A stretch of DNA of 64,000 nt, taken from NCBI GenBank assembly GCA_051294375.1, contig CM119271.1, positions 10,667,376 to 10,731,375 on the forward strand, in the 5' to 3' direction. Source of the DNA: Paraspadella gotoi (taxonomy: Eukaryota; Animalia; Chaetognatha). Below are positions 1 to 63,592 of the stretch, piece after piece (positions within the stretch are counted from its first letter, which is position 1; the number at the start of each line of letters is the position of its first letter). Under the pieces are notes generated by a model. It was not told where the DNA came from, searched no databases, and worked only from the letters and a program-made list of their open reading frames with translations. Position numbers and translations under genes: made by a program.

Positions 1-2278
1 GTCGTTTTGGTGCATGACGAAGAGAAAAAGGTATCACGCCTCGCTCACGTGGGAAATCAAAGACTTTAAAAGATGCGCCGCTAACAGGTTCGTGGGTACT
101 CTGGTCGTCCGGAGTTGTAGGGAATGACAGATTGTTTATATTCGCTCATTATATAAGTGAGAAAATTCCTTTCTCTTTCTTTCTCACTCTCTTCTTACCC
201 CCCGTTTCGTCCTTTCATCTTTTTCCATCTCCCACTATACTCAATATCGATTTCTTCTTTTCTTCTTTTCTCCGAAACCTGCAAATTCGGCTTCGCTTAA
301 CCCCATTTCCACCCCCCCCCGCCTCCCTCGGTCCCTCACCCGCCCCCCAATCCCAGAGACATTTTAAAAAAGCACCCCCATCGTGGCGGAGAACGACCCC
401 GAGAAGACGGAGTGGCACCTGAAGTGCTACCCCGGCGGGAAGAGATCCGAATTCTCCGACTACATCGGCCTCTACCTTCACTCGGAAACGCGGGACATTG
501 ACTTTTACTACGGAGACGTTGAGTTCTCCATCATCGACATCGACGGACAGAAGAGATTTTGCTACGAGTACAAGGATTACAATATCGCCGGTTCGCTCGC
601 CTTTTTTTTTTTAGTCACCTTATAAACTTAATTAAAGTCGATAATTTAAGTCTTTTAATGTCTCCATTAAGGCGAGAAAGCCATGGTCGGTCTCCATGAC
701 TACGTCAAGAGAAGCAAATTGCTGGAGGAAGAGGAGGTTTTGGTTCCCAACAACACGTTAACGCTTTTTTTCAAGCTGTCGCTTTGTTCGTCGCCCGAAT
801 CGGAAGGTTCATTGAACTCCGTGGATGATGTAATTGGTCGTTATTAGAAAAAAGTAACTCCTCCAATAATTGCTTCTTTTCAAATCCAGGTGGGCCCGAT
901 GCGCCTGAAACGTCCAAGCTTTTATCCTTGGAACATTTAAGCAACGACTTATCCGTGCTTTTAAAAAAGGAAGAACACACCTTTTCGGACGTGACTTTAA
1001 TGGTTGAAGGAAAGGTATGGAATTACTTTTCGATGCCAAATATGACCGATTTACTAATAAAAATTTACTAACGGTAAAAAATAAAACCCAGCGCTTCCAT
1101 GCCCATCGCAACATCCTCTCCGCACGAAGTTCCGTGTTTCGCGCGATGTTCGAGCACCCGTTGGAAGAGTCCGTCAACCGCCAGGTGGAAATAGCCGACG
1201 TCTCCTCCGAAACAATGTCCTTATTTATTTCCGCGCTCTACTCGGGTCGGTTGCCCGAATACTCCGCCGACGCCGCCGACGACGACGTTTTCCTCAGACT
1301 ACTCTCCGTCGCCGACAAATACAACGTGCCCTCGTTGAAGGAGGCCTGCGAAAAAAACCTCGCCCACGCCGTCGCCGCCGACAACGTCTGTCAAATCCTC
1401 GTCGTCGCCGATCTCCACGGATGCGAGGAACTCAAGCGGAAAGCCCTCGATTTCGTGGCCACGAACGGGAAGAGGGTGAGGGTAAAGGGGGGGGAAGTGT
1501 TACGGTTACGCTCATGCCTTCTCTCTCTGATCAATGGATGGTGTGATTCAATGGTGGTGCGAATTGAGGGGAAAATGTATCTGATTAGATGTTGTTACTT
1601 GGAAACCTTTTAAAAAACTGTCCCAGACGTTCAATGTTCAGCTTTATTAATGATCAAGGCTCTGTTATTTCAATGTTTAAGAAATTTGATCATTTAAGTC
1701 TCTTCGGATGCGTGGGTTCGAATGCCACCACATTTAAGTAGACAGGGATTTCAATATGAAACCAAAATGGGATTTTATTCTCAGAATATAAACAATAAAC
1801 AAGACGGTGTCAAATTCCAGGCAGAGTGAATCAATACAATTTTTGGTTCCAATTTATACAGTCCCATCGGATCGGAGTTAAGGGTAAATATTCTCGGCGG
1901 ATGGAAGCCCATCCGATCATTGGCCGGTGCCATTCGTCTCCTGGCCAATCAGAGGGTTCCATTCTACTTCCGGCGAATTTTACCCGAGTCTTTGATCCGA
2001 TTTCGTTTCTTGAGTTTGATTCCTCCGCGATGCGATCATAAGCTGACAAAATGTAGTGATGGAAATAAGTGAGTTGTAATGATTTTAACTCACCCCATCG
2101 ATCCCCCCCCCTAATCCAGATAATGAAGACGACGGAATGGCGGGAGATCGAAAAGAGTTACCCTTCCCTCCTCGCCGACGCCTTTCGCGCCATCGCCAAC
2201 AAATACATTCCGGATTCGACGGCGCCCGCCGACGCTCAACCCCCGCGGAAGAAGAGAAAACTCAAGTCCGCCTGGTGA
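1..2278 (+). CDS. SPOP-like MATH-BTB protein (Cullin-3 adaptor), 5' end outside window; about 6 exons
   Basis: Spliced reading SFWCMTKRKRYHASLTWEIKDF...EWHLKCYPGG...YIGLYL is a MATH domain. FHAHRNILSARSSVFRAMF...LLSVADKYNVPSLKEACE is a BTB domain. The last exon IMKTTEWREIEKSYPSLLADAF ends in an NLS-like PPRKKRKLK, as in SPOP. Confidence 0.88.
1691..1739 (+). pseudogene. tRNA-Leu-like 3' fragment (variable arm + T-arm) in a SPOP intron, flanked by the 9-bp direct repeat CATTTAAGT
   Basis: AGTCTCTTCGGATGCGTGGGTTCGAATGCCACCA closely resembles the eukaryotic tRNA-Leu 3' half (AGTCTCTTCGGAGGCGTGGGTTCGAATCCCACC). CATTTAAGT occurs at 1691-1699 and 1731-1739. Confidence 0.6.
1866..2002. mobile_element. 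Degenerate fold-back (MITE-like) element in a SPOP intron
   Basis: The left arm ATCGGATC..GGGTAAA..ATGGAA..ATTGGCC is an imperfect reverse complement of the right arm GGCCAAT..TTCCAT..TTTACCC..GATCCGAT. Confidence 0.55.
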
Positions 2279-2854
2279 ATCGCGGCGGCGCCTCGGGAGA
2301 GCCGAGCCGTGCCGCTCCGACTCTCACGGAATGAGGTTTTTTTTAGTTTCTAGTTTGTTGAGTCGAACCAGTTTATTGTATAATTTTATAGTTTCGTCCG
2401 TCGCGTTCGGTTTTTTTTTTCGCGAATATTACGTAGGATTGAAGATCGATTTTTTTTTTTTCAGAGATTTCTCGATGGGGTTTAGTTTTCATTGCGCAAA
2501 GCCTATTTATAATAGGGGCCGGAGCATTTTTAGATTCGAGTGGGGAGGTATTCATTAGACGTAATGAACATTTCCAAAAATAATTACAATCACACTGAGC
2601 CCAAAATATCTCGCATATCTTGGCGCACAATTAAAAGCGATTGAATTATTCTGCCTATTTTTATGCTCTATTTTTTAATAAATCAGCCTGGCTGAACATT
2701 TGGAAACCAGGCAATTCAATTGTTTAGAAAGAAAATAATGTATTTAATATTATAATTTTAGAAAGTATATTATGTATATACTCTCTTTTCGTTGTTTTTG
2801 AAGTATTAGGAGAAAAACAATTTTGGTTTGACAACGATTTTTTTGACATAATTA

Positions 2855-7053: not shown

Positions 7054-10000
7054 ATGAGCGCCGTTTCAGCGGCGGACGAAGCGGCGCCGGCGCCGCCGAG
7101 CGCCGATTCTTTGGAATCCAATTCCGTTTTTTCCCCGAAAACTCTAAAAATGGAAGCGGAGGAGGAAGAGCGACAGAGCGAATCGGATGGAGCTTGCCGA
7201 AATCAAAACATGAAAACTAAAAAAGTCGCCTCCATTTTCCCGCCTCCGCCGCCATCGACTACGACCTCGGACGCTTTGGAACGCCGCGTCGTCGTCGAGG
7301 ACGTTCTGCCGCCGCCGCCGCCGCTCGAAACTCCGTTGCCGCCGATTCCCCCGCCCCTGGCGGCGTCCCTTCCCGCTTCCTCGGATCCATTTCCTCCTTT
7401 CCCCGACTTGGTCCGATCCTCCGCCGTGGGCCTAGTCCCGGCGCCGCCGCCCCTGGCACCGCAGCCGATGGCGCCGCAGCCGATGGATGATGACGTAGCG
7501 GCGGCATCGCTTTCGGCGACAGAGGAAGATCTCGGTCTCTTGCGGCGTCATCGCCATCCGTTGAGAGTCACGCCGGATTTGATCGCGTCATATCGCTCCA
7601 CCGAGGAATTGGTCGAGGACATGGAAGACGAAATGGACCGCGCACTCGAGCGCGAGATGCACCGCAACTACGCGCGGCTGCGGCAAATCGCCGAGGAGCG
7701 CGCGCGGCGTCAGCGGCTGCGTCGCAGTCGACTAATGTCTGCCGTTCCGCCAGCCCCCGTTAATTTTGCGTCGAGCGCTTCCGCTCTGCCGCTGGACGAG
7801 TTTCCACTGGGTAGGTCACGTGTTTTTGTTTGTATTGATATTAAATGATTATTGAATATTTAATAATTATTAATTTTGTCTTAAACGTTACAAATGTCTA
7901 TGGGAGAATTGATGTTCAGATTATCCACTGAAATATTCGAAAACATAAATTGATAAGCGGACGAATAAAAACTAAACTAAATTAAATTAAATTAAATAAA
8001 ACATTCTGGGCGAAAATTTATCTCGAGCTTTAATTCGTAGTTATTTTTCTTCTCCTGTAGAATATGAACATATGAACAATTGAACATTCGTTGTTAAAAT
8101 AATAATCATATTAATTATTGATATTGATGGCCTAATATTTGTTCTTATTTGTGTTTCCGTTATCCACCCTCCATGTCTCCTTCCCGAAGAGCCGTGGAGG
8201 TTCGACGAGGAACGTCGGTCCTGTCGCCCGAAGCGTCCCGCCGATTCCTCGCTGGAATTTCGCGAGGCCAAGCACCGCCCTTCCGCCGAGACCTCGAGAT
8301 GGCGTCGCCCCTCTCGCCGTCTCCCCTTTCACCATCGCCAGATGCCTCCCTTGGAGATCAACTTCTACGACGACGACTCCTCGGACGACGAGATGGAGGA
8401 GAGCGGCGCCGAGTCGACGAGGGAGTTGAGCTCGCCCCCTTCATCTCCTCGTCGACGCGAGAACGTCCCGGGAGTCGGGAAGGGAAAGGGGAAGATGTTG
8501 AAGAGGAGCGATTCCGTCAACGAATCCAGATCGAAGGCGAAGAATCAAAATCGGGAAGATCAGGATGGATCCGCCGCGTCTTCTTCCGCGTCTGGGTCTA
8601 AAACGGCGGCGGCGTCATCTTCGGCGACGTCGTCTTCGAGTCACGCCCACATCTTCAGCCCCGTCAGCGTCGTCGAAGCGACGAGCATCGCGGAAAATTC
8701 CTCCGTCAACAGCCCCGTCGCCGAGCGATCCTCGGAACTCAACGTCGACCCGGGAGAACTTTATCCCGACCTGGCGATCGACACCAGCGAGGACGAAGAC
8801 GACGACGACTTGGAGGTCGTGGAGATCGGACGCTCGGAGCAGCAGAGCCGAGAGGAGGCCTCTTCGGAAGCCGAGGTGGTGGCGATCCCCGACGGCGACC
8901 GGTCGCGACCGATTCACCTCGTTGATCTAACAGAATCGGACGACGAGAATTCTTGCAGACGAACTACCGCCGTCGCTTGCAAATCACGGAGCGGCGGAGA
9001 CTCACAAAGCGCCGCCGCTTTCCCAACCGTCAAATTGGACGACGTGGTACTGATTGGAGACGCGTCACAATCATCGTCGGAGCATTCTTCAGAGACGCGG
9101 ACCGACGAATCCGAGCGCGCGATTAATAGAGACGCGCGCGATGGTGCGCGTTCTAATCATTCGGCCGCCGGTTCCAGCTCCGGCGTTCAAGAGTCCGGTA
9201 ACCGACGTCACGGCTCTCATCATCGCGGCACTTTAAGGGAACGGACCACATTGTCGGAAATGGTCGAGCCGTTCGTCTTCGAACAGACCCTGGAAGAGGA
9301 GGAAGAAGAAATGGCGGAGGGACCCTGCCCTGGTCACCAGGCCCCGGCGGCGATCATCTCTGCCCACGAATCCCCGCAAATCCATTCTCGTCACGAGTCC
9401 GTTCCCGCTCCTCGGGATTCGCCCTCCACGGGATGTCCGCGTTGTCTCTGGACCGAAAGGGGACTCCGCGTTCGCCGCTGCTCTTCCTGCTCGCGGCCCG
9501 CGCCCGACCCGGCGCCCGACGGATCCGCGGTTTTTCGACGTTCGCGTTCGCCTACGCCGCCGCGCTACTGCTCGCCCCCTTGCCTGCTGCTCCGCGGTTC
9601 CGCCGAGGGGCGCTCGGTACGCCGCTCCCGTTCTCATTACAACCCGACGTTCTGCTCTTCTTCCCGCGGTGGCCTCAGACGTGTTGAGCTGACCGGCGCG
9701 GTGAGCGAAGACGCCGTTTCCGCCCCTGAAGAATCTGCGGCGGAGAGACAGCAGCCGCTACAGCAAGTGGAAGGGCGAGAAACGAAGCATTCCAGGGAGC
9801 GAGAGAGAGACGGCGCGGCGACGTCGGCATCGGCGGAAAGGCAGGAGAGCCCCGCCGATCCGGTCCCGTCGCGATTCTGGGAACCGAGCGGCCGCGAATC
9901 CCCGCGAAGGAACCTTCTTCCGCAACAGCCCCTTTCCTCCGCGAGATCCAGTCTCAGTTCTTCCGTCTCGGATTTTTATCCGCGCGACGATTTTCACGGG

Positions 10001-11284
10001 TCGCCCTACTCGAGCTCCCACGTTCATCGCATGATGAACGTTCCTCAATATTCGCACTCTCGAAGAACGCTGCCCCTACATCACCAGCGGCTGTTGGATC
10101 AACATCAGAGCCAACAAGAGCGTCATCGTCGAGCTTATGATCAACACATTATGTCGTTTCGCAGGCAGCACGAGTCGGCGATGATGCAACAATACAGCTT
10201 CGGGACGCCGGGTCCGGTTCCTCCGCTTCCTTCCTCGTCGGCGCTGGAGTCGAACGTCTCGAGCGCGTCGGCCTCCACGCCGTCCAACGCCGCCCCTTCC
10301 GACTCTAGGATCGTCCGCAACCTCGTCGATTCCTGGGCAACGAGGAGTCATTTAATCAATCAGCATTTTCGTATTCGACAAGCGGCAGCGGCTGCGGCAG
10401 CCGCCGCCGCGGAGAGCGCCGCCGCTTACAGCTTGGATCTGAGGTCTTCCCCGACCTCGCTTTCGTTAAACTCATCTTCGTTTCCGTCGTCCCAGACGCA
10501 GCACCGACCGGAACCCCCTCTCCCCGCCGCTCCGACGACGGCCGAGACGGGGCTCCAGAATCCCCCGCCCTTTTCGTCCGCCCAAGTGGGGCCTTACGTG
10601 ACTTACCCCAACGTCCTCGCGGAAACCTCTGGCGCCATTTTCGCGCCTCCCTTCGGTCGACCAGTGCTCCACCCGCCGCCCCAAAGCGTCAACGGTTCCG
10701 CGGGCGTCCATCAGTTTCTCTCGGCGCCGACGGGCGTCGCCAACGCCGGCCAATTCCCGCCGGCCATGGAACGACCCTACGCCGGCCATCACCCCGAGAG
10801 GGCGTTGCACCTTCGCTTTCACCCCAACCGGATGTGGCACGGCAACATCATCGCTTCCTACGAGGAGCTCCTCAACCTGGAAGAGAGGATGGGCATCGTC
10901 AATCGGGGTGCTTCGCGCGAGACGATCGAACGCAATACTTTTCCTCACAAATACAAGAGGCTGAAAAAAAAGGGGGCGCTCGCGGAAAAAACCGAGGGCG
11001 TCGGAAACGGCGGCGGCGAAGGAGAAGGATCGAGTCGAAAAGACGACGACGTCGACACGAAGCTGACGTCCGCGGGGGAGGAAAACGACAAGGACGACTC
11101 CGTCGACAAATGCACGATTTGTTTGTCGGATTTCGAGGAGGAAGAGGACGTTCGTCGATTGCCTTGCATGCACTTGTTCCACGTGGATTGCGTGGACCAG
11201 TGGTTGAAGACCAACAAGTGCTGCCCCATATGCAGGGTGGACATCGAGGCTCATAGCTCCATTCATTACTTCAGTTCCAAGTGA
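7054..11284 (+). CDS. RNF111: Arkadia-family RING-H2 E3 ligase (RNF111/RNF165-like); one intron at about 7811-8189
   Basis: C-terminal [34 protein letters not shown] (NRG/TIER motifs) and RING-H2 [32 protein letters not shown]...[12 protein letters not shown]-like motifs LEVVEI, EVVAI and [10 protein letters not shown]. Splicing 7810 to 8190 keeps the frame. Confidence 0.82.
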
Positions 11285-11660
11285 CCCGTTGTTGTTGGTG
11301 GGGAGGGATGAATTTGATTGTACGAAAACGCTTAATGGGTTTCCAGTTTAATACTTTCTCGTAGTTAAAACTTTTTTGTTCCTTTACTTTTGTTTGCTTG
11401 GTTTCCTTTCTTGGAAACGTTTGGGAACAACAGAGGGAGAAATCGTTTAACTTGAAAAAAAAAAGAAGCTAATAGTGGTTGAATTAGGGGGAAAATATTT
11501 CTTTCCTGTCGCAGCTTGAGCAATACGAAATTATGAATTATTAGCGTTTTCTTATTTAAACCAAAACAAAGATTGTACATATAACCGTTTACTTCCAGAA
11601 CCGGTTATCGATTAATGGATTTTACAAAAATGAAACGGTAAAAAAAAAGGAAAAAATACA

Positions 11661-13717
11661 ATGTCCTGCACGATGCCGTCGTTGGACTCCATATTAAAAG
11701 ACACGAACGGCGGTGAGGCCTCGCCGACGTCTTTCGGCTCCGGCTCCGCCTTCTCCTCGGAAACGGACTACCTGCAAAAGTCATTGTCGGTCTGGATCGA
11801 GGGACAGTTCGCGACGCCGCCCGGATCGTGGCGGAGAGAGCCCACGCTCGATCCCCCGGTCCCGCTGGACATTTGCACGGCGGCGAGTATTGGAAAAATC
11901 GAACTCGTCAAGACGATCGTGGAATCGAGCGACGCCGCCGGTCGAGACTTGAACCGACGAAATCGCGGCGGATGGACGCCTCTCATGTACGCCGCTCACA
12001 ACCGCCACGACGCCATCGTATCTTTACTTCTCGACCACGCCCTCGACGTCGACGTCAACGTGAAGAGCGGCGGCGGAAAGGACGTCACGGCGTTGATCCT
12101 CGCCGCCTCTTGCGGCAACGAGTCCATCTGCCAAGCGTTGATTCGCCGCGGCGCCGACGTAGACGCCCGCGATCGCAAGGGATGGACGCCGCTCTTCCAC
12201 GCCACCAACGGCGGCCACGCCAACGTGGTGCAACTCTTGCTGCGCGAAGGCGCCGCTCCCGAATGCTACGAGCCCAAGCACGAATTCACGCCGCTCATGC
12301 TCGCCGTTTGGGAGAAGCAGGAGATGATCGTCAAGAGTTTCCTCGATCACGCGACGACGTCGGCCGACGCCGCCAAGCGGATCTGCCGCTGCGTGGCGAT
12401 GAAGAACGCCGGCGGCGACACGGCCAGATCCATCGCGCTCAAGCGGGAATTCGACAAGATCGTCTCCCTCATCGACGAGTTTCTGACGGGAGCTCGATCG
12501 GGGAATCATCGAAGATCCGACGCCGACAATTTCCCCAGCATTCTCGACGGACCCAAAGCCTTTGAGAAACTCGTGACGCGAAAACCCAATCACGATCGCG
12601 CGGCGACGAGACTCGCGGCGCCGGTGGCGCCCGCGGAACCGGAACCCGACGCCGATGATGATCCTTTCGGCAACACCGCTGCCGTCACGGTTCGTTCCAA
12701 CGGGAGTCGGAACCCGACGCAAGGACTGGCGACTGCGTTTGGGGAAAGGTTTGTGACTTTAGTTGGTGTTTTATAAGCATTAATCGCGTCTTGATAAGAC
12801 CTTTTTTTGGTGTCAGTCTTTATCTCTCTTATTGTTAAAAAATAATAGAAATTTTTAGGGTGGAGAATTTTTAATAATGAAAAAAAAAATAAAGCTGCAA
12901 TATTAAGCATTATTATTTAATTCTGTTTAAACTTTAACGCAATCCTTTTATTTCGACCCGATTCTCTTACAGACTCAAAGTCAAAGATCCTCCATCTCTC
13001 CCGCCTCCAACCGTTCCTCGTCCCCACGAATGCGACGCCTCCGAACTCCCCGACCTCTCCAAGATCCTGGCCTCCCTCGGCCAACACAAATACCTTTCCC
13101 TCTTCGAAGAGCAAGACATCGATTTCCCCGTCTTCTTGACTCTCACCGACGCCGACCTCAAGGAGATCGGCGTCAACCTCCTCGGACCGAGGCGCAAGAT
13201 GACCTCCGCCATCGCTCGATTCAACGCCTCCGTCGGCGCCGCCAGAGATTTCGGCGGAGAGAGAGAGGTCGGAACCGACGCCGCCGCTGCGGGAAAGACC
13301 GAAGCTCGAAGGGACGCCGCGTTTCGGCCGGACGGCGCGACTGCTTCGGAGGAGAGAGCGGTGCGCGCTGCGCTGCGTCAGACTCTTCTCTGCTTGGAGG
13401 AGCTCCGCGAATCCGTCTCGCTCGGCCGACGACGCGGCGAAGAGTTGGAGAGAGAGTTGGAACCCTTTCTGGCGCCGACGCGGTCGCAGCGGCAGCGGCA
13501 GCGGCAGGCGACGACGTCCCGGGAGCAGCAGCCGCGGAATTCCTGTGATATTTGCCGGACTGAGTCGGAGTCGGTCGTCGACGTCGCGGATCGATTCAGG
13601 ATCGAAGTGGATCGATTGTTGGCGACGCAGGCGGAGTGCATCGAGGAGACGATGAGGAGGATCGGAGGAGGAGGAGGAGGAGACGGGCCGGGTTATCGTG
13701 CAAATTCTTTGTTATAA
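11661..13717 (+). CDS. ANKS3: Ankyrin repeat and SAM domain protein 3; intron at about 12749-12972
   Basis: PLDICTAASIG followed by ankyrin repeats (GWTPLMYAA, TALILAASCGNE, GWTPLFHA). SAM domain LGQHKYLSLFEEQDIDFPVFLTLTDADLKEIGVNLLGPRRKMTSAI. Confidence 0.88.
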
Positions 13718-14650
13718 ATCTCTCGATATACTATTATGTTTTATTAATTTTTTTTTCATGCTCAATGGACAAGAGATTCTATTTTTTTTATTTGACGCTT
13801 TTATATCGATTTTTTTTTTAAAATACTATTAGACTAGAAAATTTTTTTTTCTGAGATAGATGTTTCGTTGTTTCTTAAATTTGAAATTTGTTCGTTATAA
13901 AATGCCTTTTTAATTAGACATTCCTGAAACTAGTTATCTGTACAAGATAAAGATAGTTTTATCGATTTTTTTTTGTCAATGTTTAAGTGTATCTTCGTGT
14001 TATTTGCGAGTCTTTAGTTTGGAATTTAAATTTTTGTTGTTGTTTAAGAGTTGTTTAAAAAAGTTGGATTTTTACGAAGACCTTAATTATGCTGTTTTGA
14101 TCAAACTTAATCGTGCCGTTAAACCGCCTAAAGTGCTATTGCTTTGTCCTACAGATTTTCAGCGATTGTCTTTTGTTGATTGTGCGATGATTCGCTCGAA
14201 TTCGACACCAGGGCATTTTTGAGGATTGCTAAGGATTACGTCCTCTTAGCTCGCAGGAATTTTGTTCTTAAGTAAATTTTTATCTCCTCTGTCTCGACGT
14301 CTTTGGCCCAAAGTTTGGGGAGTAAATGCTGCATAATTCATTAAGAGGACAATCTTCCCCAGGAATGCCCTTTCTTTTTACATCTTCCTCTTTTCTCTCA
14401 AAAGAAGGATTCGCTAATTTAATTGTCATTGTTTCCTCGACAAAAAGACTAAGTTGCGGAAACGAACGTAGTCTGAATTTAATCTCTTCTCGATGCAATA
14501 GTATTTCTCTTCGATTCTCTAATGTCCTTAGGGCCAAGTCAAGTGTCATTTTTAGACCTAAAAGGAAAACAAAAATTTGATCCGAGTTTCCTTCGCCCGA
14601 TTTATTTTTCAGAAATATATCTTGAATAATTTTTTCAGAATATCTTGATT

Positions 14651-16294: not shown

Positions 16295-16593
16295 GGCGTC
16301 GCTGAAGGAATTTCGAGCCTCTCATCACTCTTTATGCGTTTTACTTTTAATGCTATAATGCCCTAATGCCCTAATGTCATGAAAAAGAACGATTATGAAC
16401 GAGTGCAATCCAGAAATTTGTTCTATTTCCCCGAGCGATCAAAAATCTTTAGTACAAAATACGCGTTTTACGAAGTTTTACGACAGCTACTGTCCTTAAC
16501 TTCGCGCATTTTTTTTCACACATCTCATTGTTAACTAAGTCATTGTTGTTGTTGGTTATTTTTTACCTTTTCAATCCTTCAGCTTTGGTCCAA

Positions 16594-21354: not shown

Positions 21355-25355
<4,001 letters not shown>

Positions 25356-27305: not shown

Positions 27306-29098
<1,793 letters not shown>

Positions 29099-36145: not shown

Positions 36146-36225
<80 letters not shown>

Positions 36226-47600: not shown

Positions 47601-50432
47601 GTATATTAATTAATGATAATGATTGATTCAGAGTTTGGGACATTTAGCAATATTTACTATCAATAATTGATATTAGGTTTAAAATCGTATTTTCAATTTA
47701 GATCGTCGAGTCTGTGAAAACGCCGCCATCCGTCCCACCTTCCTCCCATCATTTCTCCTGCAGCGTCGATCTTCGATCTTTCCACGATTTGAAAACGTTG
47801 CTGACGAAAGATTCTTATCTTTTCTTTCGTTATCATTACCCCTTTTTCGGTTTCTCCGAAGCCATTCACATCTTTCCCGCCATCAAGGTAAATGGTCAAC
47901 TCTTTTAGTTGACATCATTGGAGCGACTTAACGATCCGATCTTTCCTTTATCTCAGCCGACTCCCTTCACCGACACGATGATACCCAACGGTTTTTGCGC
48001 TTTCGACTTCGCCTCTCCGCTCCCTCAATTGGAACACACGTTTCATAATCAACCGTTCATGCTGGAACTGTGGGGTCGATCCGCGGCCAGGTGAGAGAAG
48101 AGAGAATCAAGTTAATGGAGAAACGAAAAAATCAACGCCACACTCTCCCACCACCTTTGACAGCGGTCACCCGAATGCCCCGCAAATAGTCGATCCACGA
48201 TCGGACGCTCTTTTGGGCGTGGCCAAGCTTCCCCTCCTCCCCTTGTTGCAATCCCCCACCACCATCATCTCCCACGCCGCCGAGGTCAAGCGTCGGAGTT
48301 TCAACGCCAAAATCCCCGTCGTCTCCATCCCTACGTCCGCCGAGAGTCAGACACCGCCTCTGGGTGAAGTCGCCGTCTTCCTCTGCCTCGACGACCTCGG
48401 GTTCTTCCGACCGCCGGAGCCGCCGACGCCGCCGGCACCGGCACCGAAGACGGCGGACGCGGCGACGGCGACTTCCGACGCCGAACGGGAAACGCGTCCG
48501 GCGGCGAGAGAGACCCCGGAATACAAGGCGGCGCTGGAGCTGGAATTGTGGAAGGAGACGCAGAAGGAGGCGTTCGAGGAAAGTTTGAAGAGAAAGGAGC
48601 AGGAGCATTTGCAGGTTCGTTTGGTGAAAGGGAATGGGGTGTCGTTTTTAACATGTGTGGTCCTTGCATGTGGTCATCTTTCGACAGGCCATTTCGGAAG
48701 AGTACAAACGACGAGAGCGAGAACGCGAGCTGACGATGCGGAAACGAATCGCGGATTATTCCGAGTTGGAGACGCGATTGCGAGAGACGCTGGCGGATTT
48801 GGAAGCGAGGCAAAAGACTCTTCTACAGGCGGAGAAGGAGGCGGAGAAGTTCAAAGAGGAGGCGAAGCGAGAGCATCAGGCTCGACTGGTGGAGGTGGAG
48901 GCTGTTGCCAGGAGAAAGGCCGAGGATTTCGAGCATAAGGTCTTTTTTTTTTGTGGATGTTAATCTCGCTGGATGTCGATTTAGCAGTTGAGCTTTATTA
49001 AATTTATTGTTAAAACAACAGATAGCGTTGGAGAAGAAAAACTCGAAAGGTTTGGAGGATCAAATAAAGAGGTTGCAAGGGGATTTGGTTGAAGCCGGAC
49101 GGAAACTAGAAACGTCGGACAAAGCGTTGGAATCGCTGAAACTGTCGCAACAGCAACAACCGGAGGTCGTGTTGCAGAGAGAAGTGAACAAATTGACGGC
49201 GGAGATTAGCCAGTTGGAGAAAAAGCTCGAGGCCGGTGAGTGGGTCGTCGGTTTGGCCGTGGGCGGTGCGGTTCCGGTGGGCTGTTTGTATTTGATTTTC
49301 GTCCTTTATTTTGTCAGCTGCCAAGTCCAAGGCTCACTACAAACAGCAGTGGGGTCGCGCGTTGAAGGAATTGGCGAGATTCAAGCAGAAAGAAGCGGAA
49401 GGAGCGAAAGAGCGATTGAGGATACAGGAGCACGAGTTGGAGCATCTGAGGTGAGTTGGAGCAACGGAGGTGAGTTTTCGGTTTGACTCGTAACGGGGGG
49501 GAAGGAAAAGGGAATGAGTGGCGCGGGGAAGGGAGTTGGAAATTATCAAATTGGTACAATAAATTTCAAAATTATCCATTTTTTTATTAAACAAGCTTTG
49601 GTAGTTGGGCTCCTGTCTTTGAAATGGCTATGGTGCGTGATTGCATCAAGGTCATCGTGTCAAAAAAAGCTTTCCGTTGGGAATACATTCGAACAAAGTT
49701 AACTTTTTTGCGAATCATACATGATCTGAATAGTGAACCGAGGTGATCGGTAGAAATTTTAATGATTAAGGAGTTGAATCTGGTTTAATGCTTGTGTAAG
49801 TTTAAATGATTTAATTATGGGGTAAAATAAGTACTAATTGCTGGTACAACAGAAGAAATGAGCTTGCAGTAGTGACCGACACAAGATCAAGAAAATCTTG
49901 TGACAGATCGCAGAGAAATAATGGCCGAAAAAAAGAAGGGGGGGGTTTAAAAGAGTGCTAGGGGAAGATTCCTGTCGCAACACGTTTTCCTTTAATTTTC
50001 ATCATCTTGTGCGGCAATGAATGAAAACCAAACTTATTCCAAAGGCTTCGCTACCTCGTCGCCGAGGAAAGAGGCGTGTCCAACGCCGAACACCGGCAGA
50101 TGCAAGACTTGAAGGAGGAAATCGCGGCGCTCAAACTCGCCAACCAACGTTTTCTTCCCGTCGATCCAAACTTCGCGCGTGGCACCCGCGTCGAAAACGA
50201 CGGCAACAACAACAACGACAACGAGGAAAGCAACAAGAACCGAATTGTCGCGGATTCGCCGATGACCGTCGACGAAGACATCGCTCGTCTCGTCGAGGAG
50301 AGAGACGCGTTGCTTCAAACCGGCGTCTACTCTGACGGAGACAGAGTCATTCGCGATCTCGATCGTCGAATAAAGGAGAAAATGGCGCGAGGGATGACGT
50401 CGCGGAATCCGTTGACGTCGCTGGTCACGTGA
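44628..50432 (+). CDS. CEP120: Centrosomal protein of 120 kDa (C2 domains + coiled coil); multi-exon
   Basis: [100 protein letters not shown] and [16 protein letters not shown]. Confidence 0.94.
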
Positions 50433-51177: not shown

Positions 51178-53500
51178 ATGCGATCGTCTCTTCCTCCTTT
51201 TCCTCTTTTTCTTTGGTGTCACTTTTGTTTCTTTATCTCCACCGCGCGAGCGCCCTCTCCGGGCGACGGAATGAAGACGTCCCATTCGGTCCGTTCGTCC
51301 GTCTCCGAACGCGACGCGGACGCGGCTGCGGCCGCCGCCGCCTACGGACCCTTCTGGTCCCCCACGGCCGACGCGGCCTGCCCCTCCGCCTGTTTCTGCG
51401 AGTCGCCGGATCAGGCGACTTGCGTCGGGTCCCGTGTCAAGGTCGTCCCCGTCAAACTCAACCCTTACGTCCGCGAGTTGGAGATCGTCGACGCTTCCCT
51501 CGTCAGCGTCCGCACCGACGCCTTCAAGTTCTTCCCGCGGCTGCGTCGACTGGCGCTCGTCAACTGCTCCGTCGTCAAGCTGGAGGCGTTTGCCTTTCGC
51601 GGACTCGTCGAGCTGGAGACGCTGGAGTTCAGCCTCAATCCGCTGACGCACCTTCCAAGATACGCCTTTTCGGGACTCTTCAACGTTAAGGTCGGTTGTG
51701 AGAATGTTAGGGAGTTCGGTCGTTAATAATTGCGTCTGTATTGCGTGCGAAGGATCCATTTCCACCCGCCCCCGAATATCTGTAAGAGATGATTATTTAA
51801 TATGATCTTAAATATGATCTTATATATCTCCCAGTTAATCAACCTGACCCACAACGGAATCAAACGCGTGCATTCCCTGGCGTTCGAGTCGACCTCCTTC
51901 GTCCAGCGTCTCCTCCTCCTCCACAACCCGCTGAGCCACATCTCCGCCCGTTCATTCGCGGGTCTCTCCCACGTTGACGCCCTCGTCATCTCCGACGTCG
52001 ATGCCCCCACGCCCATCGCCACCCTCGAGCCCGACGCCTTCTTCGGGCTTAGTCACGTCAAGGATCTCCATCTGGCGGGGACGCCGATGACGAGGTTGAG
52101 AAGAGAGCTAAAGGAAATTAAGGAAAAGAATTGAAGGAAAGAATGGAGAGAGAAAGAATCAAAGAAAGACAGAATCAATGAATCAATGAATAAATAAATA
52201 AATTCAATCAATCAGACAAAGAAAGAAAAATATGGAAAAGAAATTTAATCTTGGAGGGGTATTGAAGGCGTGAGGAAATAGAGGGAAAAATCGTATATTT
52301 CGCGAAGAGTAGAAACTGGAGAATGTATCGCTTGACAAAATATAACGAGGGGCAGGAGGAAAGACGAGGAAGAGGATAATGGGACGTCAAGATAAATCCT
52401 CCTCCGTTAATTAACAAAATTGATCTCTCCCAAACCCTCTCTTTTAAAAGATTGACCCCGTTCTCCTTCCGCGGTCTCCGCAACGTCGGCCACATGTACC
52501 TCCAGAGGTCAAAGGTCGTCGTCGTCGAGTCCCACGCGTTTTCCGGCCTCAACGACGTCGGTTACGTTCACCTCGACGACTGCAACATCCGACACATTCA
52601 GGTATGAATGGGGGGGGCGCTTCCAGATCGGGCGTGACCACCGACCAACCTTTTGAGTGAAGTCGTAAATGATCTCGAAACGACTTCCCGTTAGGCGGCG
52701 GGATTCGCGGACATGACGAACGTTTCCTACGTGGACCTCAGCAAGAATCGTCTCTACGAACTCACCCCGGAGAGCATGGAGGGCGTGGACGCGGCCGTGG
52801 GGCATCTCGATCTCATGGAGAATCCTTGGCACTGCAACTGCAGCATCCATTGGATGCATAAGGTTCGGGTGGTGGGATAATGGCTCGGAAATTGTTGTAT
52901 CAAATTGATAAGTGATATTAGCTCCTTTTAAAAATATAAGTACATAAGTGTATTATTAACTGAAGACGCGATTCGTGATCTCAGGCGGCGAATCAGTTGG
53001 ACGACGAGGACGTGACGGTTTTGACTCGAAGCATGATGTCCCTTCGGTGTCACACGCCGCCGGAAATGCGCGGGCGCTACCTGGCTCAGCTGGACGATCG
53101 GGTCATGCGGTGCCCCACCGTCGCCGTCGAGCGGCGCGCCCGGGAAGGCGACGCCCCCGTCGCCGCTTCCGGCGTCCCCAAAACAACCGCGTCCGGACCC
53201 GGCGCCGTATTTTTTGGCGCTCTCGTTATTTTAATCTCGGGTCGGACGACGGGTGGGTTCCCTTCGTTACGATGGGAAACGTCGTCGTCGCCGTACTCGT
53301 TTACTCATTGGATAACATATTTATTCGTTTATTTATTCGTGTCGTATCATTACGTGTTTATTATCGAAACTCTTTGCGATATCATCCGTTTTTCCAAGGA
53401 AAGCGTGCTGAGTTTTTCTATTGTTTGTTTCGGTTTTTTGTTTTTTTTCGCGCTGATCTCACGACGGAAGAGCGATTCCCCTTTACTTTTATTGATTTAA
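51178..53500 (+). CDS. Secreted or cell-surface leucine-rich repeat protein; about 5 exons; 3' end uncertain
   Basis: Signal-peptide-like N-terminus, LRRNT CPSACFC, repeated LxxLxLxxN/AF.GL units, LRRCT NPWHCNCSIHWM...LRCHTPPEMRG, and a hydrophobic C-terminus. Confidence 0.85.
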
Positions 53501-55174: not shown

Positions 55175-57089
55175 ATGCACAAAATCGTAACTCGTCTTCC
55201 GCGCGCGAGGCTCGTCGATGGCGCCCGTCGATGCCTCTCGACTAACGTGGAGACGGATGCTTCAACGACACCCTCGACCACCTCGCCCGCACCCCTCTTC
55301 ACCCCCGAGCATCGACAGCTGCAAGAGACGGTTCGTCGCATCGTCGAGACTGAGGTCAATCCTTTCGTCGAGGAGTGGGAGGCAGCAGGACGATTTCCGG
55401 CCCACGAAGTCTTCAAGACTTTCGGCGACGCTGGACTCTTGGGCCTGACGAAACCAGTAGAGTTCGGCGGAGCGGGGCTCGATTACAGGTGTCCGGCTGG
55501 GGTCGGGCTGAGTTCGGGCAAAACTTGTCGTGATTACGACGATTACGCGATTCTTTCACTTTTCAACTCGTTCACCCATTCGTTCACTCACTCATTCACG
55601 CAATCATTTATTCATCGTGCATTCACTCTTAACCCTTGACCCGATCTCCCAGTTTCGCCGTCGCCTTCGCCGAAGAACTCGGCTCCGTCCGATGCGGCGC
55701 CATTCCGATGGCCATCGGCGTTCAGACCGACATGTCGACGCCGGCGCTTGCGAGATTCGGCAGCGACGACCTCAAAAAGCAATTCCTCGAACCATCCAGT
55801 AAGATTTCAGGGGAGATTATTAATCAATAACAACGATATTAATTGATTAAATAATTAATTTAGTCGCGGGAGACTTGGTCTCCTGCATCGGCGTCTCGGA
55901 AGTGGGCGCGGGTTCCGACGTCGCCAGCATCAAAACGACAGCGACGCGACGAGGAGACGATCTCGTCGTCAACGGCGGGAAAATGTGGATCACGAACGGG
56001 AGCCAAGCCGGTGGGTAAGGGCGAATTGTCAGATTAAGTCTAAGAGGGGAAGGCAATAAAACCTGTCGTTTTTTTTTTCTTCAAAGATTGGATGTGCCTT
56101 CTCGCTAACACGAGCGAGGGACCAGCTCATCGGAACAAGTCATTGATTTGTTTACCGCTCAATTTGCCCGGAGTTCACGTCGCGAAAACTGTGAGTGAAT
56201 TTTTGGTTCGGGAATTTAAACTTTTTTTTTTTAATGAACTCACTTGTTTACTTGTTCATTTGTCTAAATTCCTACGTTAGATCGATAAACTCGGTATGCG
56301 AAGTTCCGACACGGCGCAAATCTTTTTCGAAGACGTGAAGGTGCCAGTAACGCACATCATCGGTGAACCGGGATTCGGATTTACTTATCAGGTTTCGCCA
56401 TCTTGAATTACTTTTGTTTAGGTTTTTTTTTTTTTTTTGGGCGTCGATAATAAATTCCAATCCATTTCCTGGTTAGATGTTGCAATTTCAAGAAGAGCGC
56501 CTCTTCGGCGCCGCGAGTGTCATCAAAGCGATGGACATCCTCATCCAAGAAACTGCTGACTACACCCGAGAACGCAAGGCCTTCGGCGGACCAGTGTTGA
56601 ACAACCAAAGCGTTCATTTCAAGCTCGCCGAGCTCGCCACGGAAGTTGAGGCTTTGAGATCGTTGGTGTATAGGTTGGTTAATAAATGTAATAAAATTAA
56701 AATGTAATAAAATAAATGTAAAATGCAGGAGCTAAATCTTTCTTCCTTCAAAAGATGCGTCGCTGAATACATTTCCGGAAATGACGTGACGATGATGGCA
56801 TCAATGGCCAAGTTGAAGGCGGGAAGATTGGGTCGTCAAGTCACCGACGCTTGCCTGCAATATTGGGGCGGAATGGGATTCACCAACGAAGTGGCCGTCA
56901 GCAGGTAAAATACAAAACAATTATGCCTTTTTTGTCTCGTGATTGAGTTCCTTGATCACAACTTAACTTTTCATTTTCAGAGCGTATCGTGATTTCCGTT
57001 TGATTTCCATCGGTGGCGGAACCGACGAAGTCATGTTATCCATCATCTGCAAATACATGGACTTGTTACCATCGAAACCTAAAAGTTAA
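55175..57089 (+). CDS. Mitochondrial acyl-CoA dehydrogenase family protein; about 8 exons
   Basis: Transit-like N-terminus, [71 protein letters not shown] and [17 protein letters not shown]. Confidence 0.94.
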
Positions 57090-57447: not shown

Positions 57448-59481
57448 ATGGGCTGCTTCAGTTCGGCCAAGGAACACTTTTACCGAATCCGCCTCTTGGA
57501 CGACACGGAGCTGTCGGTGTCGACGAGCTCCTCCTCCAAAGGCGCTCATCTCCTCGACCAAATCTTCCGTCATCTGAATCTCGTGGAGATGGAATTCTTC
57601 GGCCTTCGCTTCTTCGATCAGGAGACGTCGTCGACGGCCTGGTTGGATGAAGAGAAGACCCTGGGCTCTCAAGTCAAGTCGCCCGAGTGGAGCCTCTTCT
57701 TCGCCGTCCGTTTCTACGCCGTCGACCCGGACAAGTTGGCGGAGGAAGTGACGCGCTATCAGTTCTTCCTCCAGCTTCGCCGCGACCTCCGCTCCGGAGC
57801 GCTGCCCGTCCAGCGGGATCTCGCCGTCCAGCTGGGTTCTCTCGCGCTGCAAGCTGAGACTGGCGACTTCGATCCTCGTCGCGGCGCGCCATCCTCGCGC
57901 GTCGTAGTGCCCGGAGAGACGGAACGCGTGCGGGCGGCGATGACCAACTTGCACGCGACGTTGTCCGGGATCGCGCCCGGCGTCGCGGAGAAGCGATTCC
58001 TCCACAAAGTCAAGTGGGCCGAACTCTACGGGACCGAGAGTCATCGCGTGACGGGCGATGGCGGCGTCGCCTACATCCTCGGACTTTCGCCCACGGGCAT
58101 CGCCGTTACCAGAAACGAGACGCGCGTCGGAAACTACCCCTGGCCGCGAATCCTGAAACTCGCCGTCAAGAAGGATCGTTTCGAGCTCTGCGTCCGAGAG
58201 GGAACTTCGTCTAGCGGGGTCGTAGCTTTCAGGGTTTCGTCCAAACCCGCCGCCAAGCACTTGTGGCGAAACGCGCAAGCGCAGAAACGGTTCTTCACGA
58301 CGGCCCGAGTGGAAAATCCCATGGTGGCGCAGAGACGTTCACAGGGGACATCGTCGGCACCGGAGAGACGAACGACGCCGGCCGTTTCTCCGAAATCGGC
58401 GCCGCCTCCGCCCGACTCACGCCTTTCCCCGCTCGGCGACGAATCCCCGCCCGTTGGACCAGAGCGGATCCTCGCGCCGCCGCCGACGGCGATCGTCGAT
58501 GGAAAACCGTCCAAAGAGGAGCCGAATGGAGAAGGCGGTGCAGCGTCGCCGCTGGTGGGCGTAGCGGAGTCGGTCGTCCCGACCGGCGGCCTCTACACGA
58601 CCAAAGGCGACTCTCCTCTGTCCGTTCGATCATCCGCCTCTTCACGCGCCGCCCGTCGCCGACCTCAATCGGACAGCGACTACAGCGCCAAGGGCGCCGC
58701 CCATCGAAGCCGTCGTGCCGCTCGCCCTGAAGGCGGCGACGGCGTCGACGAAGGCGGCGGCGGTCGGAGGAGGAGATCGCGAAAAAAGTCGGACACGAGT
58801 CGAGGATCTCGAGGAGACGGCGAGGGAGTCGACGAGGGCGTGGAGGGATCGAAGGAAGGCCGGAGGCGGAGACGTCGCCGAGAAGAGGACGTCTTCGTCG
58901 ATTCGTCCACTCAATGGGCCGCCGTTCAAAACCGCAGAAACGCTAATAATAACAACGACGAAGACGATGACGACGGATACTTGGCGGAGACTCAACTCCT
59001 AAAGACGACGCCGAAGCATCAGAGGAAGCAGCGCTCGCGCAGCAAATCGCCCAAATCCTCCAAGGCGTTGCCTCCGGAGATCCTGACGCACATCCAGCGC
59101 GACCTCGTCGATCCCCGGGGATTCTCCGACGAGCAACTCCACGACATTCCTTTCACCAACGTGGAGACTCATCAAAGACCGAGAAAAATCTCCCCGCATC
59201 GATCCGTCAAACTCCAGCGCCCCTCGCGGCCGGAAAGCGACTCGATGCAGGTGGCGCAGTTTCGTCTCGACTCGGCCGGCGACGCTCGCGTAGCCGCCGC
59301 CACTCGGGCCATGCCCTCCGAGAGACCCGAGATGGCGCCGCCCCTTCGCGGCGGAATCGGCACCGTGCCCACCGCCGGTGGTGGCGCCATTTATTTTCCC
59401 AACGGAATTCCCTCTGGTTACTTCAGCGACTCCACGACAGTCAACGTTTGGGCAGACGACGAGATGGACTTGGACCATTGA
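57448..59481 (+). CDS. EPB41L4A: Band 4.1-like FERM protein 4A; intronless, 677 aa
   Basis: MGCF N-terminus, FERM domain (HLNLVEMEFFGLRF, FAVRFYAVDPDKLAEEVTRYQFFLQL), and C-terminal HIQRDLVDPRGFSDEQLHDIPFTNVET resembling the EPB41L4A motif. Confidence 0.85.
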   Translation: MGCFSSAKEHFYRIRLLDDTELSVSTSSSSKGAHLLDQIFRHLNLVEMEFFGLRFFDQETSSTAWLDEEKTLGSQVKSPEWSLFFAVRFYAVDPDKLAEEVTRYQFFLQLRRDLRSGALPVQRDLAVQLGSLALQAETGDFDPRRGAPSSRVVVPGETERVRAAMTNLHATLSGIAPGVAEKRFLHKVKWAELYGTESHRVTGDGGVAYILGLSPTGIAVTRNETRVGNYPWPRILKLAVKKDRFELCVREGTSSSGVVAFRVSSKPAAKHLWRNAQAQKRFFTTARVENPMVAQRRSQGTSSAPERRTTPAVSPKSAPPPPDSRLSPLGDESPPVGPERILAPPPTAIVDGKPSKEEPNGEGGAASPLVGVAESVVPTGGLYTTKGDSPLSVRSSASSRAARRRPQSDSDYSAKGAAHRSRRAARPEGGDGVDEGGGGRRRRSRKKSDTSRGSRGDGEGVDEGVEGSKEGRRRRRRREEDVFVDSSTQWAAVQNRRNANNNNDEDDDDGYLAETQLLKTTPKHQRKQRSRSKSPKSSKALPPEILTHIQRDLVDPRGFSDEQLHDIPFTNVETHQRPRKISPHRSVKLQRPSRPESDSMQVAQFRLDSAGDARVAAATRAMPSERPEMAPPLRGGIGTVPTAGGGAIYFPNGIPSGYFSDSTTVNVWADDEMDLDH

Positions 59482-60405: not shown

Positions 60406-63400
60406 ATGACCAGAGAGTTTCTCTCGTCGTCGTCGTCCTTGGTTCTCCTTCTTCTCAAACTTCTCCTCCGCGTCGAGGCCAATCACTTGGAGCAGTTCTT
60501 CACGATTCCCGAAGGCTCCGCCGCGCGGCTCGAGTGCTACAGGTACTCCCGTTTCCGGGTTTGTTGGGTCGTTGGCATCTCGGAAGAGAAGTTGGGGATC
60601 GTTTTTTTTTGTTGTAGATTATTCGTAATATTTCATCAACTTTACCATTTCCACCGAAGCTCCAAACCCAACGTGGTCTGGAAGAAAGCCTACGCGTCTC
60701 GCACGCAATCGGAGACGCTGTCCCGCAATGGCGTCCGCGCGGCGCCGGGCTACGACCGCGTTCTCTTCGAGCGCGAGCGGATCGAGACGGACGGCGTCGG
60801 GATGCGCGGCGTCAACGGCGCCCCGCCCGGCAACGCCCGATACAAATACGTGATGAAGCTTAAGTCCGTCGGGCTTGAGGACAGCGGTCTCTACACGTGC
60901 GACAACGTCTACAGGTTTACATCGTGTTATGTATTGTATTGTAATATATTGTAATGCAATGTTTCTCATTAATGATTTTCCAACAGGAATGATATATTCA
61001 TTTTCCAAGATGGTATAAGCTTTAAAAATATCCGCGAGCGATTGAACGCTGAAAAGCGTCTTTGTTTCCTCTCTTTTCTTCCATTCATTTATTTCAAATT
61101 CCCCCCTCCAGTTACTTCGTCTCCATCGTGACGGAGCCTTCCTGCCAGCCCATCATCGCCCTCATGAACGGCCCCCTGGTGGAGGGCGAAGTGACGCGGT
61201 TCGAGTGCGTCGCCGAAGTCAGCAGCGCCAGCCGCATCGATCCCCGGATGCGGTTCGGCGGCGACACCCTCACCGACGCCATCTCCATGGGCACCAAGTC
61301 CTCCAACGTCTACTTATCTTGGGTCATCGGGGACAAAACGTTGAAGACGAGTCAGGTGAGGAAATGGGGGAATTTTTTTTTTTTATTAGGATTGGGGGTT
61401 TGACAAAAAGGTAAGTTTGGCTTGGAGAGACGAATAGATCTGATTGGGGTTTGACAAAAAGGTAAGTTTGGCTTGGAGAGACGAATAGATCTGATTGGGG
61501 TTTGACAAAAAGGTAAGTTTGGCTTGGAGAGACGAATGGATCTGACCTCGCTCTTTGTTTTCCACCGACAAGGCCGACGACATGACCGAAATCAACGGCG
61601 GAGTGACCTCGAAGAAGCTCAGCCTAAGCCTGGCTTACGTGGCCGACGGAGACGACCATGCCAAGGCGCTCAAGTGCGTCCTCCACTCTGACGCCTGGAA
61701 GCGGAACAAGGCTTGGGAGTCGGGAGAAGGAGTGGGGGTGATGGCGCCCACCTGTCGGGTCGGGGTCCTCAACGTCGCCTTCGGACCCAAACTCGACTGC
61801 AACAAGACTCAGGTTTGGTTGACAAATGGGTTGTAGAGATTTAATTATCTAGAGGGAGGCTTCAGCTTGTGAATGATCGCTCTTTCAACGAAAACGTCCG
61901 TATTTTATACCTTCAAATATATTGAATTGTTCTCTCCTTTTCCTCCTCTTTTCTTCCTTTTTCTTTTTCCTATACTCTTCTTTTCTTTCCTCTTCTTTTA
62001 TTTCCCTTTGCTCCGCATTTCACTTTCTTTCCTCCTCATTTCCTTTCCCCTCTTCTCTCCCTTCATTTTCCCCTATTCCCCCACCCCCGCCAAAAAAAAA
62101 AGATTTTCCTCGACGGATCCCCCGCCTACAACCTGGCCTGCGACGTCCGCGCCAACCCTCTCCCTCCAACGGAGTCGGTCAAGTGGCGCGTGCTCGGCGT
62201 CGGGCTGGATCACCCCTTCCCCGGCCAAATCACCCACAAGAGAGACTTTAGGATGAAGGCCGTCGTCGACGTTAAGCCTTTGATGCAGAGCCTCTTCAGG
62301 ACCTCGCAATCTTTCAGCCTCACCGTCAACAGCTCCTTGAGAATATCTACGCAAAAGGCGAGTACAAAGAGTCGAGATGTTTCGATGATTGTGACTGTGA
62401 GTGTGATCGGTGATTTAGTGAAACCTGTTTCATACGTTGGCAATAGGGCTTGTATGCCTAGCTTCGTTAGCCCTTTCGCCATCAATGAAACGGGTCCTGG
62501 CCACGCTCTGATGGATAGCGGATAGCCTTCCGAAGGGTAGTTACCGGGTTGGGATTGAACGCCAGCTGGCTTCACTCAATGAGCCTCAGTCACAACAGAA
62601 GGAACGATGTCTTTAGGCGGAATGAACCTGATGAATGGGCAATGCCCCAGTTGCCCACTATACAGTGACTGAGTGACTTAAAAATTTCTTTCTCTCACGT
62701 ATTCAACCAGACGATCGAAGCGCGAGTGAAGAAAAGCGTGGGCGTGGTGTGCAGCAGCCGGAAGCGAATCACCACGCCCCTTACCTATTTGGTGATGTGC
62801 GTCGTCAACGCGGGAACGCGACTCACCCGGAATCACGTCAGGTGGAAATACGAAGGTGAGGTCTATTGGATTTTATTGACTTAGTAGTTATGTTTCATAT
62901 CTAATACATTTACGCATATATTTTTGTATTTCAGATCGTAGCGACATTCCCGACTCGAAGGTGGAGTATTACTCGTCTCCGCCCGCGTCTGGTGCCATTT
63001 TAAACGTGAGCGAAGCGGAGGGGAGCGTCTTCTTCATCCTCATGGGGGTCGGCCCGCTTCGAGATCTTCGACAGGTTGGTCCAGTTTTTTCGTAGTAACT
63101 TATGATCTTGCATATTTTAGAATTCCACGAATAATTTGATACTGGTATAATATGCAATTGTAATAACGACGAGTTCCTTTACTTTTATTTCGGTCATATT
63201 TTGTCGATCCCAAGAAGGTTTTAAAATAAATGATAATAACGATTCGAAAGTTTTAAAGAAACTCCAATCCTCCCAACCCCTTGCCCCCCCCTCCCCCCCC
63301 CCCAACAATCCCGCCCCAGGAGTTCAAGATCGAAGTCCCTGCAGTCCGCGACGGACTCTTCTCCTCTTGGGCGAGCCTCGCCGCGGAGACGGTCTACTTC

Positions 63401-63592
63401 GTGGCGACGAACGCGTGGGTGCTCGCCATCGTGGGCGGCGCCGTCGCCTTCGTCCTTCTCGTCTGTTGCTTCTGCGCTTCGCTCTTCCACGCGGGACTCT
63501 TGGAGCCGAAACCGGAGGACGACGACGAGGAGGACGAAGTCCGGGTCGACGTCGATCAAGTCGATAGCAAGTTTTATTATTACGAAGCTTAG
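60406..63592 (+). CDS. Immunoglobulin-superfamily type I membrane protein; multi-exon; 3' end uncertain
   Basis: Signal peptide, EGSAARLEC..VVWKK..LEDSGLYTC (Ig V/I-set), EGEVTRFEC..DDHAKALKC, CDVRANP, and TM segment WVLAIVGGAVAFVLLVCCFCASLF. Confidence 0.78.
61393..61546 (+). repeat. ~51-bp tandem repeat x 3 in an Ig-gene intron
   Basis: Unit TTGGGGTTTGACAAAAAGGTAAGTTTGGCTTGGAGAGACGAATAGATCTGA. Confidence 0.93.
62418..62680 (+). other. Highly structured ~260-nt intronic element (probable SINE or retroelement UTR remnant)
   Basis: Stems ACCTGTTTCAT/ATGAAACGGGT, TGGC/GCCA, AGGGCT/AGCCCT, CCTGG/CCGGG, CTCAGTCAC/GTGACTGAG and TGGGCAA/TTGCCCA. Confidence 0.5.

Follow-up and report, generated by a model that had tools for sequence, protein, structure and literature searches.

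A 19-gene single-strand run in a chaetognath genome, with spliced RNA contigs crossing gene boundaries in its 5′ part

Animal operons have been described as short chains of genes, and they are the nearest parallels to the locus studied here: a 64-kilobase (kb) stretch of the chaetognath Paraspadella gotoi (GenBank assembly GCA_051294375.1, contig CM119271.1, forward-strand positions 10,667,376 to 10,731,375; hereafter the window, numbered from its first letter), in which all of the genes that could be rebuilt lie head-to-tail on one strand. In kinetoplastids, directional clusters line up tens to hundreds of unrelated genes, nearly free of cis introns, on the same strand, and do so genome-wide with rare strand switches. 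Chaetognath operons were described in 2008, and in the RPS14–PCNA operon of Spadella cephaloptera 3 nucleotides (nt) separate the poly(A) site from the acceptor (PMC2481426). For P. gotoi, a 2025 study reports that about half of the genes are trans-spliced and 18% lie in operons (5,061 genes, distributed over 2,151 candidate operons), the longest holding nine genes under a 250-bp rule (PMC12460157). The first of two parts of the Flaccisagitta enflata genome preprint leaves operons unmentioned. Operons of Ciona intestinalis lack intercistronic DNA: the upstream mRNA ends on the G of the acceptor AG, to which its poly(A) tail is added. Unresolved dicistronic cDNAs occur there and AATAAA is often absent; the SL1-type (spliced leader 1) operons of Caenorhabditis are named in the same paper (PMC1488885). 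Dicistronic loci of Drosophila, an animal without trans-splicing, consist of two genes (PMC2776167).

All 19 rebuilt genes of the window are carried on the + strand, as the original prediction held, and Pfam families name 17 of them (46 plus-strand open reading frames were submitted), the matches of TADA1 falling slightly below the curated cut-off. Sixteen genes were rebuilt from several exons, their frames open and every intron of the GT..AG or GC..AG type, and the other three (RNF5, CENP-X and a FERM gene) are single open reading frames. The two genes without a Pfam match are gene X (of which the middle exon was searched), backed by RNA, and an immunoglobulin (Ig)-like gene, backed by an open spliced model alone. 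On the minus strand, 182 stop-to-stop frames of at least 70 amino acids (aa) gave a single, sub-cut-off match to Pfam (DUF5562, antisense to XPB, scoring 23.4 bits where the cut-off is 29.5), and no hidden minus-strand gene was found among these frames. The genes come from different families, except for two unrelated RING ligases, and tandem duplication is therefore rejected as well; the earlier argument that unrelated genes leave duplication no explanatory role stands. In composition the window resembles the operons of Spadella and P. gotoi (unrelated housekeeping genes, co-oriented and close, proteasome and ubiquitin genes among them) and also the long one-strand runs of kinetoplastids; unlike the latter, it carries 59 introns in 12 genes (median 96 nt), with further introns in the other models.

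From SPOP to NXF1, the stop-to-start gaps measure 4775, 376, 933, 299, 277, 429, 128, 176, 406, 420, 1163 and 159 nt; from NXF1 to the Ig-like gene they measure 1205, 1545, 745, 1674, 358 and 924 nt. The median of all 18 is 425 nt, with ten at or below 450 nt and three at or below 250 nt. The 12 genes from RNF111 to NXF1 (7.0–36.8 kb) form a tightly packed housekeeping stretch, whereas the six junctions from NXF1 onward are mostly wider (358–1674 nt) and include membrane-protein genes, which may have promoters of their own. The longest P. gotoi operon, of nine genes, includes ribosomal proteins; the core here counts 12 genes and the run 19, without a ribosomal protein gene.

The original prediction set the chance of 19 genes on one strand at about 4e-6, a value that is correct for one fixed window (2^-18 = 3.8e-6) but overstates the surprise. 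In a genome of 22,000 genes, runs of at least 19 are expected 0.04 times if orientation is random, 0.33 times if 56.5% of neighbours are co-oriented (our own estimate, converted from the P. gotoi operon counts) and 0.9 times at 60%. The run exceeds the random-orientation expectation and is not extreme once operons exist; at about 0.3 such runs per genome with operons, it points to operons and needs no kinetoplastid-like clusters.

Nine sequencing runs of one organism contain the DNA of the window, none of them recorded as RNA, and four runs were mapped to positions 7000–18380 (11.4 of the 64 kb). One of these, X9, was taken to be RNA, as its contigs skip introns 7811–8189, 12749–12972 and 17964–18043; the DNA run X5 continues through all three. 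Record 24 of X9 (4704 nt, depth 116) spans 11599..17395 on the + strand and consists of 30 extra letters followed by three listed pieces, 11599–12746, 12971–14789 and 15522–16727, its three further exons being assigned from lengths and depth: the unlisted parts measure 126 and 376 nt, precisely the lengths predicted for the B3GAT and gene X exons in question. With its introns all removed, this contig holds three complete reading frames, those of an ANKS3-like ankyrin–SAM gene (11661..13717, 610 aa; Pfam Ank and SAM, one intron skipped in record 24), a B3GAT-type glucuronyltransferase (14651..16294, 345 aa; Pfam Glyco_transf_43, record-length arithmetic 126 = 126) and gene X (16594..17386, 166 aa, three exons; open spliced frame, record-length arithmetic 376 = 376, RNA depth bins). 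It runs unbroken across the intervening 933-nt and 299-nt gaps, and the X9 bins inside the 933-nt ANKS3–B3GAT gap stay at depth 116–118.

The neighbouring contigs end or begin at splice sites. Record 22 (depth 112) covers 7000–7809 and 8189–11280, within a RING-H2 ligase (7054..11284, +, 1283 aa; Pfam zf-RING_2, intron 7811–8189 skipped in this record) which, from its domain layout, we take to be RNF111/Arkadia-like. Record 23 (depth 74) covers 11251–11598, its last base being the G of the acceptor AG before ANKS3. Record 25 (depth 174) starts at 17656, directly past an acceptor TAG (17653–17655, within 17636..17663 on +) and 8 nt before the start codon of a TCP11-like gene (17664..19604, +, 543 aa; Pfam Tcp11, with an RNA joint), and begins with 10 letters that do not match there. 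Two of the four boundaries in the mapped stretch are crossed by one spliced contig and a third via an inferred splice, leaving gene X–TCP11 unbridged; because 17395 is also where the DNA run X5 is interrupted, the X9 break there is uninformative on processing. A further 1654 letters of record 22 lie upstream of 7000 and represent either contiguous DNA from 5346 or spliced SPOP, which has 1137 nt of exons in the window. In the first case, transcription would take in 1.7 kb upstream of RNF111 and the contig would begin inside a T run, such runs holding 61 of the 4701 positions of the SPOP–RNF111 gap. Farther downstream, X9 contains 0.61 of the sampled words of 21001–30000, where coding exons alone would allow 0.54 and exons plus gaps 0.68, a weak hint of transcription beyond the mapped part. 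Run X10, from another organism, gave short chance matches only on 7000–18380.

The interval 11281..11598 (+), the 3′ untranslated region (UTR) of RNF111, extends from a donor-like GT at 11281 to the acceptor AG at 11597–11598, and is likely to be an abutting cistron boundary that is probably sometimes removed as a cis intron. At the one boundary with an informative contig end, the upstream 3′ end lies at the downstream acceptor (one of one: record 23, at 11598, with no poly(A) seen and in one run). The GT at 11281 scores above 13 of 59 true donors, and record 22 stops just before it. Adjacent X9 contigs overlap by 30 letters, the length of the extra segment of record 24, and the depth residual before 11599 is 3722, against 30 x 116 = 3486. 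These 30 letters are fairly likely to be the last 30 of record 22, joined by a cis splice from RNF111 to ANKS3; that they are a leader is possible but a good deal less probable. Such a splice explains the stop of record 22, the 30 letters and the depth residual together, and would need one precursor; it would extend RNF111 by 10 residues and place its stop 19 nt before the ANKS3 start. In the gap upstream of TCP11 the sole donor-like site is weaker than 51 of the 59 true donors, and for that reason we interpret the 10 unmatched letters of record 25 as a candidate remnant of a leader, its 3′ end, a splice from farther upstream being the less likely alternative. A pattern search found no leader RNA gene in the 64-kb window.

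On balance we lean towards the view that the tight part of the run consists of chained, leader-resolved operons with abutting cistrons. Spliced-leader trans-splicing would resolve a long precursor into messages of one gene each, at acceptors where the upstream 3′ end abuts the 5′ end of the next gene, the leader reaction at the acceptor also making that upstream 3′ end. Cis introns would be removed before some boundaries are cut, giving spliced dicistronic intermediates, and the bridging contigs would reflect single precursors. The core would run from RNF111 to NXF1, and hexokinase to the Ig-like gene would be partly separate units. Record 24 fits spliced, unresolved intermediates of the kind seen as dicistronic cDNAs in Ciona, where the upstream mRNA ends on the acceptor G, as record 23 does at 11598; the Spadella operon, too, has its upstream 3′ end near the downstream acceptor. 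Ciona operons are mostly of two genes, whereas the chain in the window is longer, and a cis splice from an upstream coding end to a downstream acceptor, as deduced here, sets the window apart from Ciona.

Polycistronic transcription is graded by region: likely for the 5′ part, unproven for the whole run. The original prediction proposed very long or chained polycistronic units; chained units are supported for the 5′ half, in which contigs join ANKS3 to B3GAT and to gene X, and probably also RNF111 to ANKS3, and one kinetoplastid-like unit across all 64 kb is not shown. The locus would work like an operon of the Ciona or chaetognath type, with a putative leader and a putative single promoter. 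New here would be the length (a 12-gene core in a 19-gene run, extending the range of animal operons beyond the nine genes of P. gotoi) and the cross-gene cis splice. The cluster may already be among the published P. gotoi operons, in pieces; six gene names of the window occur nowhere in the supplementary PDFs of that study (PMC12460157). A literature search, mostly of titles and abstract starts and with few subscription journals, found no animals with directional clusters or longer operons. The locus would lend itself to questions on the maximum length of polycistronic units in animals, on whether the upstream 3′ end is a product of trans-splicing and, at RNF111–ANKS3, on the competition of cis- and trans-splicing for a single acceptor. 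Should the run continue genome-wide, here would be an animal that largely lacks gene control through individual promoters.

Several observations weigh against leader-resolved operons, and some of them would suit independent promoters in a compact genome: each gene would be transcribed alone, 3′ UTRs would overlap or read into the next gene and be chained by the assembler, and a run of 19 would lie in the tail of a distribution with a mild bias. A contig that crosses genes is no proof of a single molecule, and overlapping UTRs could chain contigs in this way. The leader is deduced, no leader sequence having been read from X9 contigs, and the spliced PSMC4 transcript of a relative (L001, with 245 nt upstream of its start codon) carries no published chaetognath leader. 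In the 110 nt next to start codons, acceptor-like sites show no significant enrichment (7 of 18 starts have one, where shuffling gives 6.5 on average), and the same threshold is passed by 43 of 118 gap windows; this test used a weak matrix on a pyrimidine-rich background, and the span that it scored did not take in the NXF1 site. Of the 11 core gaps, 8 lack AATAAA, which does not differ significantly from the 7.5 in shuffles. The depth argument for the cis splice is suggestive only, residuals in other bins ranging from 0 to more than 200. Relatives' PSMC4, TCP11 and FERM genes sit on single-gene-size contigs of 1.6–2.4 kb, as independent genes would, and the six 3′ gaps of 358–1674 nt would also suit separate promoters; such contigs, however, are equally compatible with resolved messages. 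Where no more than 128, 159 or 176 nt separate stop from start, a promoter would hardly fit in addition to the UTRs on either side, independent promoters do not lead one to expect a contig that ends on an acceptor G and another that starts just past an acceptor, and random orientation yields 0.04 such runs per genome; we regard independent promoters as unlikely. Genomic DNA in the RNA library would also give bridging contigs, and X9 is not on record as RNA, a status that we guessed and that its spliced contigs back. The residual over most of intron 7811–8189 is 0.4 in X9, against 116–118 inside the 933-nt gap, and with that intron empty DNA contamination is rejected, its chance being close to negligible.

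Two further readings accept polycistronic RNA and differ from chained operons in its extent or its fate. One kinetoplastid-like directional unit over all 19 genes and more, in a genome of such clusters, would account for the lack of any strand switch in 64 kb, membrane-protein genes included, and for the T skew of the gaps (T exceeds A on the + strand in 18 of 18, with a skew of 0.105 against 0.137 in introns), a skew that could come from U-rich 3′ UTRs alone; if record 22 is contiguous from 5346, transcription may extend even into the 4.8-kb gap. P. gotoi operons nevertheless reach nine genes at most and 18% of its genes are operonic, about 0.3 runs of 19 genes would be expected per genome with operons at such a frequency, and RNA was mapped no farther than 18.4 kb, so that we hold such a unit decidedly unlikely; the fullest form of the idea (a unit longer than 64 kb with one promoter, a genome of directional clusters, and mature multi-gene messages alongside leader-capped ones) is a still more doubtful proposition. 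Mature polycistronic mRNAs without a leader, as in Drosophila, with the downstream frames reached by re-initiation or internal entry, would explain why record 24 is fully spliced with three frames and why records 22 and 24 are of near-equal depth (112 and 116), and the RNF111–ANKS3 splice would place a stop just 19 nt before the next start. Window and Drosophila dicistronic mRNAs have in common spliced RNA with more than one reading frame; unlike the Drosophila loci, the window has contig ends that sit on splice acceptors, record 23 ending at one and the TCP11 contig starting separately at another, with foreign letters and at depth 174. The 933-nt spacer, moreover, is long for re-initiation. 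Nor does an unbroken contig prove the leader absent. Assemblers clip short leader tips where a through path exists, and the passage of record 24 over the B3GAT and gene X acceptors therefore does not exclude leaders there. Taken together, mature leaderless messages seem to us very unlikely, and chained operons resolved by a leader stay the preferred account of the tight part.

Protein relatives place the animal only broadly. The nearest PSMC4 relatives, at 94–96%, and the nearest TCP11 relatives, 62–64%, come from environmental and run assemblies, named species reaching at most 48% for TCP11; the nearest FERM relative stands at 46%, followed by nemertean, annelid and chiton proteins. No named chaetognath protein is among the PSMC4, TCP11 and FERM matches. 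In a quick TCP11 tree of 39 rows (38 of 109 matches plus the window protein, with no tunicate row), the window protein and three other rows group together on a long stem, apart from the arthropod, mollusc, echinoderm and vertebrate rows, and the animal does not group with deuterostomes, unlike Ciona. A pattern scan for relatives found one metagenome contig, the single-gene PSMC4 transcript L001, and nothing in genome and viral contigs; the 5′ region of L001 matches the window no better than chance, 23 of 300 shuffles scoring equally. The word TTCTGTGATAAA occurs 88 nt before the PSMC4 start codon in the window (27207–27218) and 76 nt before it in L001 (158–169), and TGTGAT is found in the gaps 12 times on the + strand and 4 times on the minus strand. 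The CpG observed/expected ratio is 1.38 in coding DNA and 0.28 and 0.39 in two copies of a high-copy repeat (3 CpG each). CpG-rich coding DNA with a CpG-poor repeat is as expected if only transposons are methylated, an indirect sign that is common to other lineages, and the window may in this way resemble P. gotoi in showing no gene-body methylation signature. Transposon-only methylation has been reported for P. gotoi, some nematodes and ctenophores (PMC12460157).

The other genes of the run, all on the + strand, begin with a SPOP-like MATH-BTB gene (2..2278; Pfam MATH, BTB and BACK, six-exon model) with its 5′ end outside the window. Downstream of TCP11, Pfam matches and spliced models define PIG-C (GPI2; 20034..21226, 283 aa), XPB/ERCC3 (21355..25355, starting 128 nt past the PIG-C stop), TADA1 of SAGA (25532..26899, starting 176 nt past the XPB stop) and PSMC4/RPT3 (27306..29098, 421 aa, also supported by protein relatives). 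An intronless RNF5/RNF185-like RING protein follows (29519..30085; Pfam, single open reading frame), and then CENP-X/MHF2 (31249..31530; Pfam, with an extra 5′ exon possible at 30857–30895) and NXF1/TAP (31690..36840; Pfam, spliced model), which starts 159 nt past the CENP-X stop and ends the proposed tight core. Beyond it, Pfam and spliced models identify hexokinase (38046..43082, 611 aa, its first exon inferred), CEP120 (44628..50432, 1104 aa), a leucine-rich repeat membrane protein (51178..53500) and an acyl-CoA dehydrogenase (55175..57089, 425 aa), and a Pfam match in a single open reading frame identifies an intronless EPB41L4A-like FERM protein (57448..59481, 677 aa). The last gene encodes an Ig-like single-pass membrane protein (60406..63592; open spliced model), a label taken from sequence features only; Atlas gave no name for its exon.

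Single genes show features of their own. The first intron of B3GAT is of the GC–AG type (14792–14867), in agreement with the RNA record lengths. CENP-X is present in the window, at 31249–31530, and reported gene losses in gnathiferans cover 12 of 20 genes for centromere assembly. The RNF5–CENP-X gap (30086–31248) contains acceptor-like sites at 30501, 30849, 31002 and 31239, and a short ATG frame at 30857 could splice in frame to CENP-X or be a small spliced gene. The hexokinase model includes a Ser/Pro/Ala-rich insertion in its C-terminal half (41896–42099).

Intron 2 of B3GAT carries, at 15045–15414, a repeat some 325 nt long whose ends bear a 45-nt direct repeat; further copies of the 325-nt element lie at 3146–3386 and, in part, at 45360–45425 and 49532–49635 (minus strand). 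Its summed contig depth reaches 1.6 million in the DNA run X1 (unique DNA, about 95) and 49,000 in X9 (about 115). Rfam gave 12 matches on the window up to E = 1, none at the gathering score; within the repeat, a Twister-P5 ribozyme match at 15310–15352 (+) is weak (25.8 bits, against a gathering score of 37.6) and is missing from the second copy, and the repeat folds no better than its shuffles. It may be a retrozyme-like element. Elsewhere, intronic minisatellites with periods of 52, 33 and 51 occupy 24588–25014, 39813–39917 and 61390–61545, respectively.

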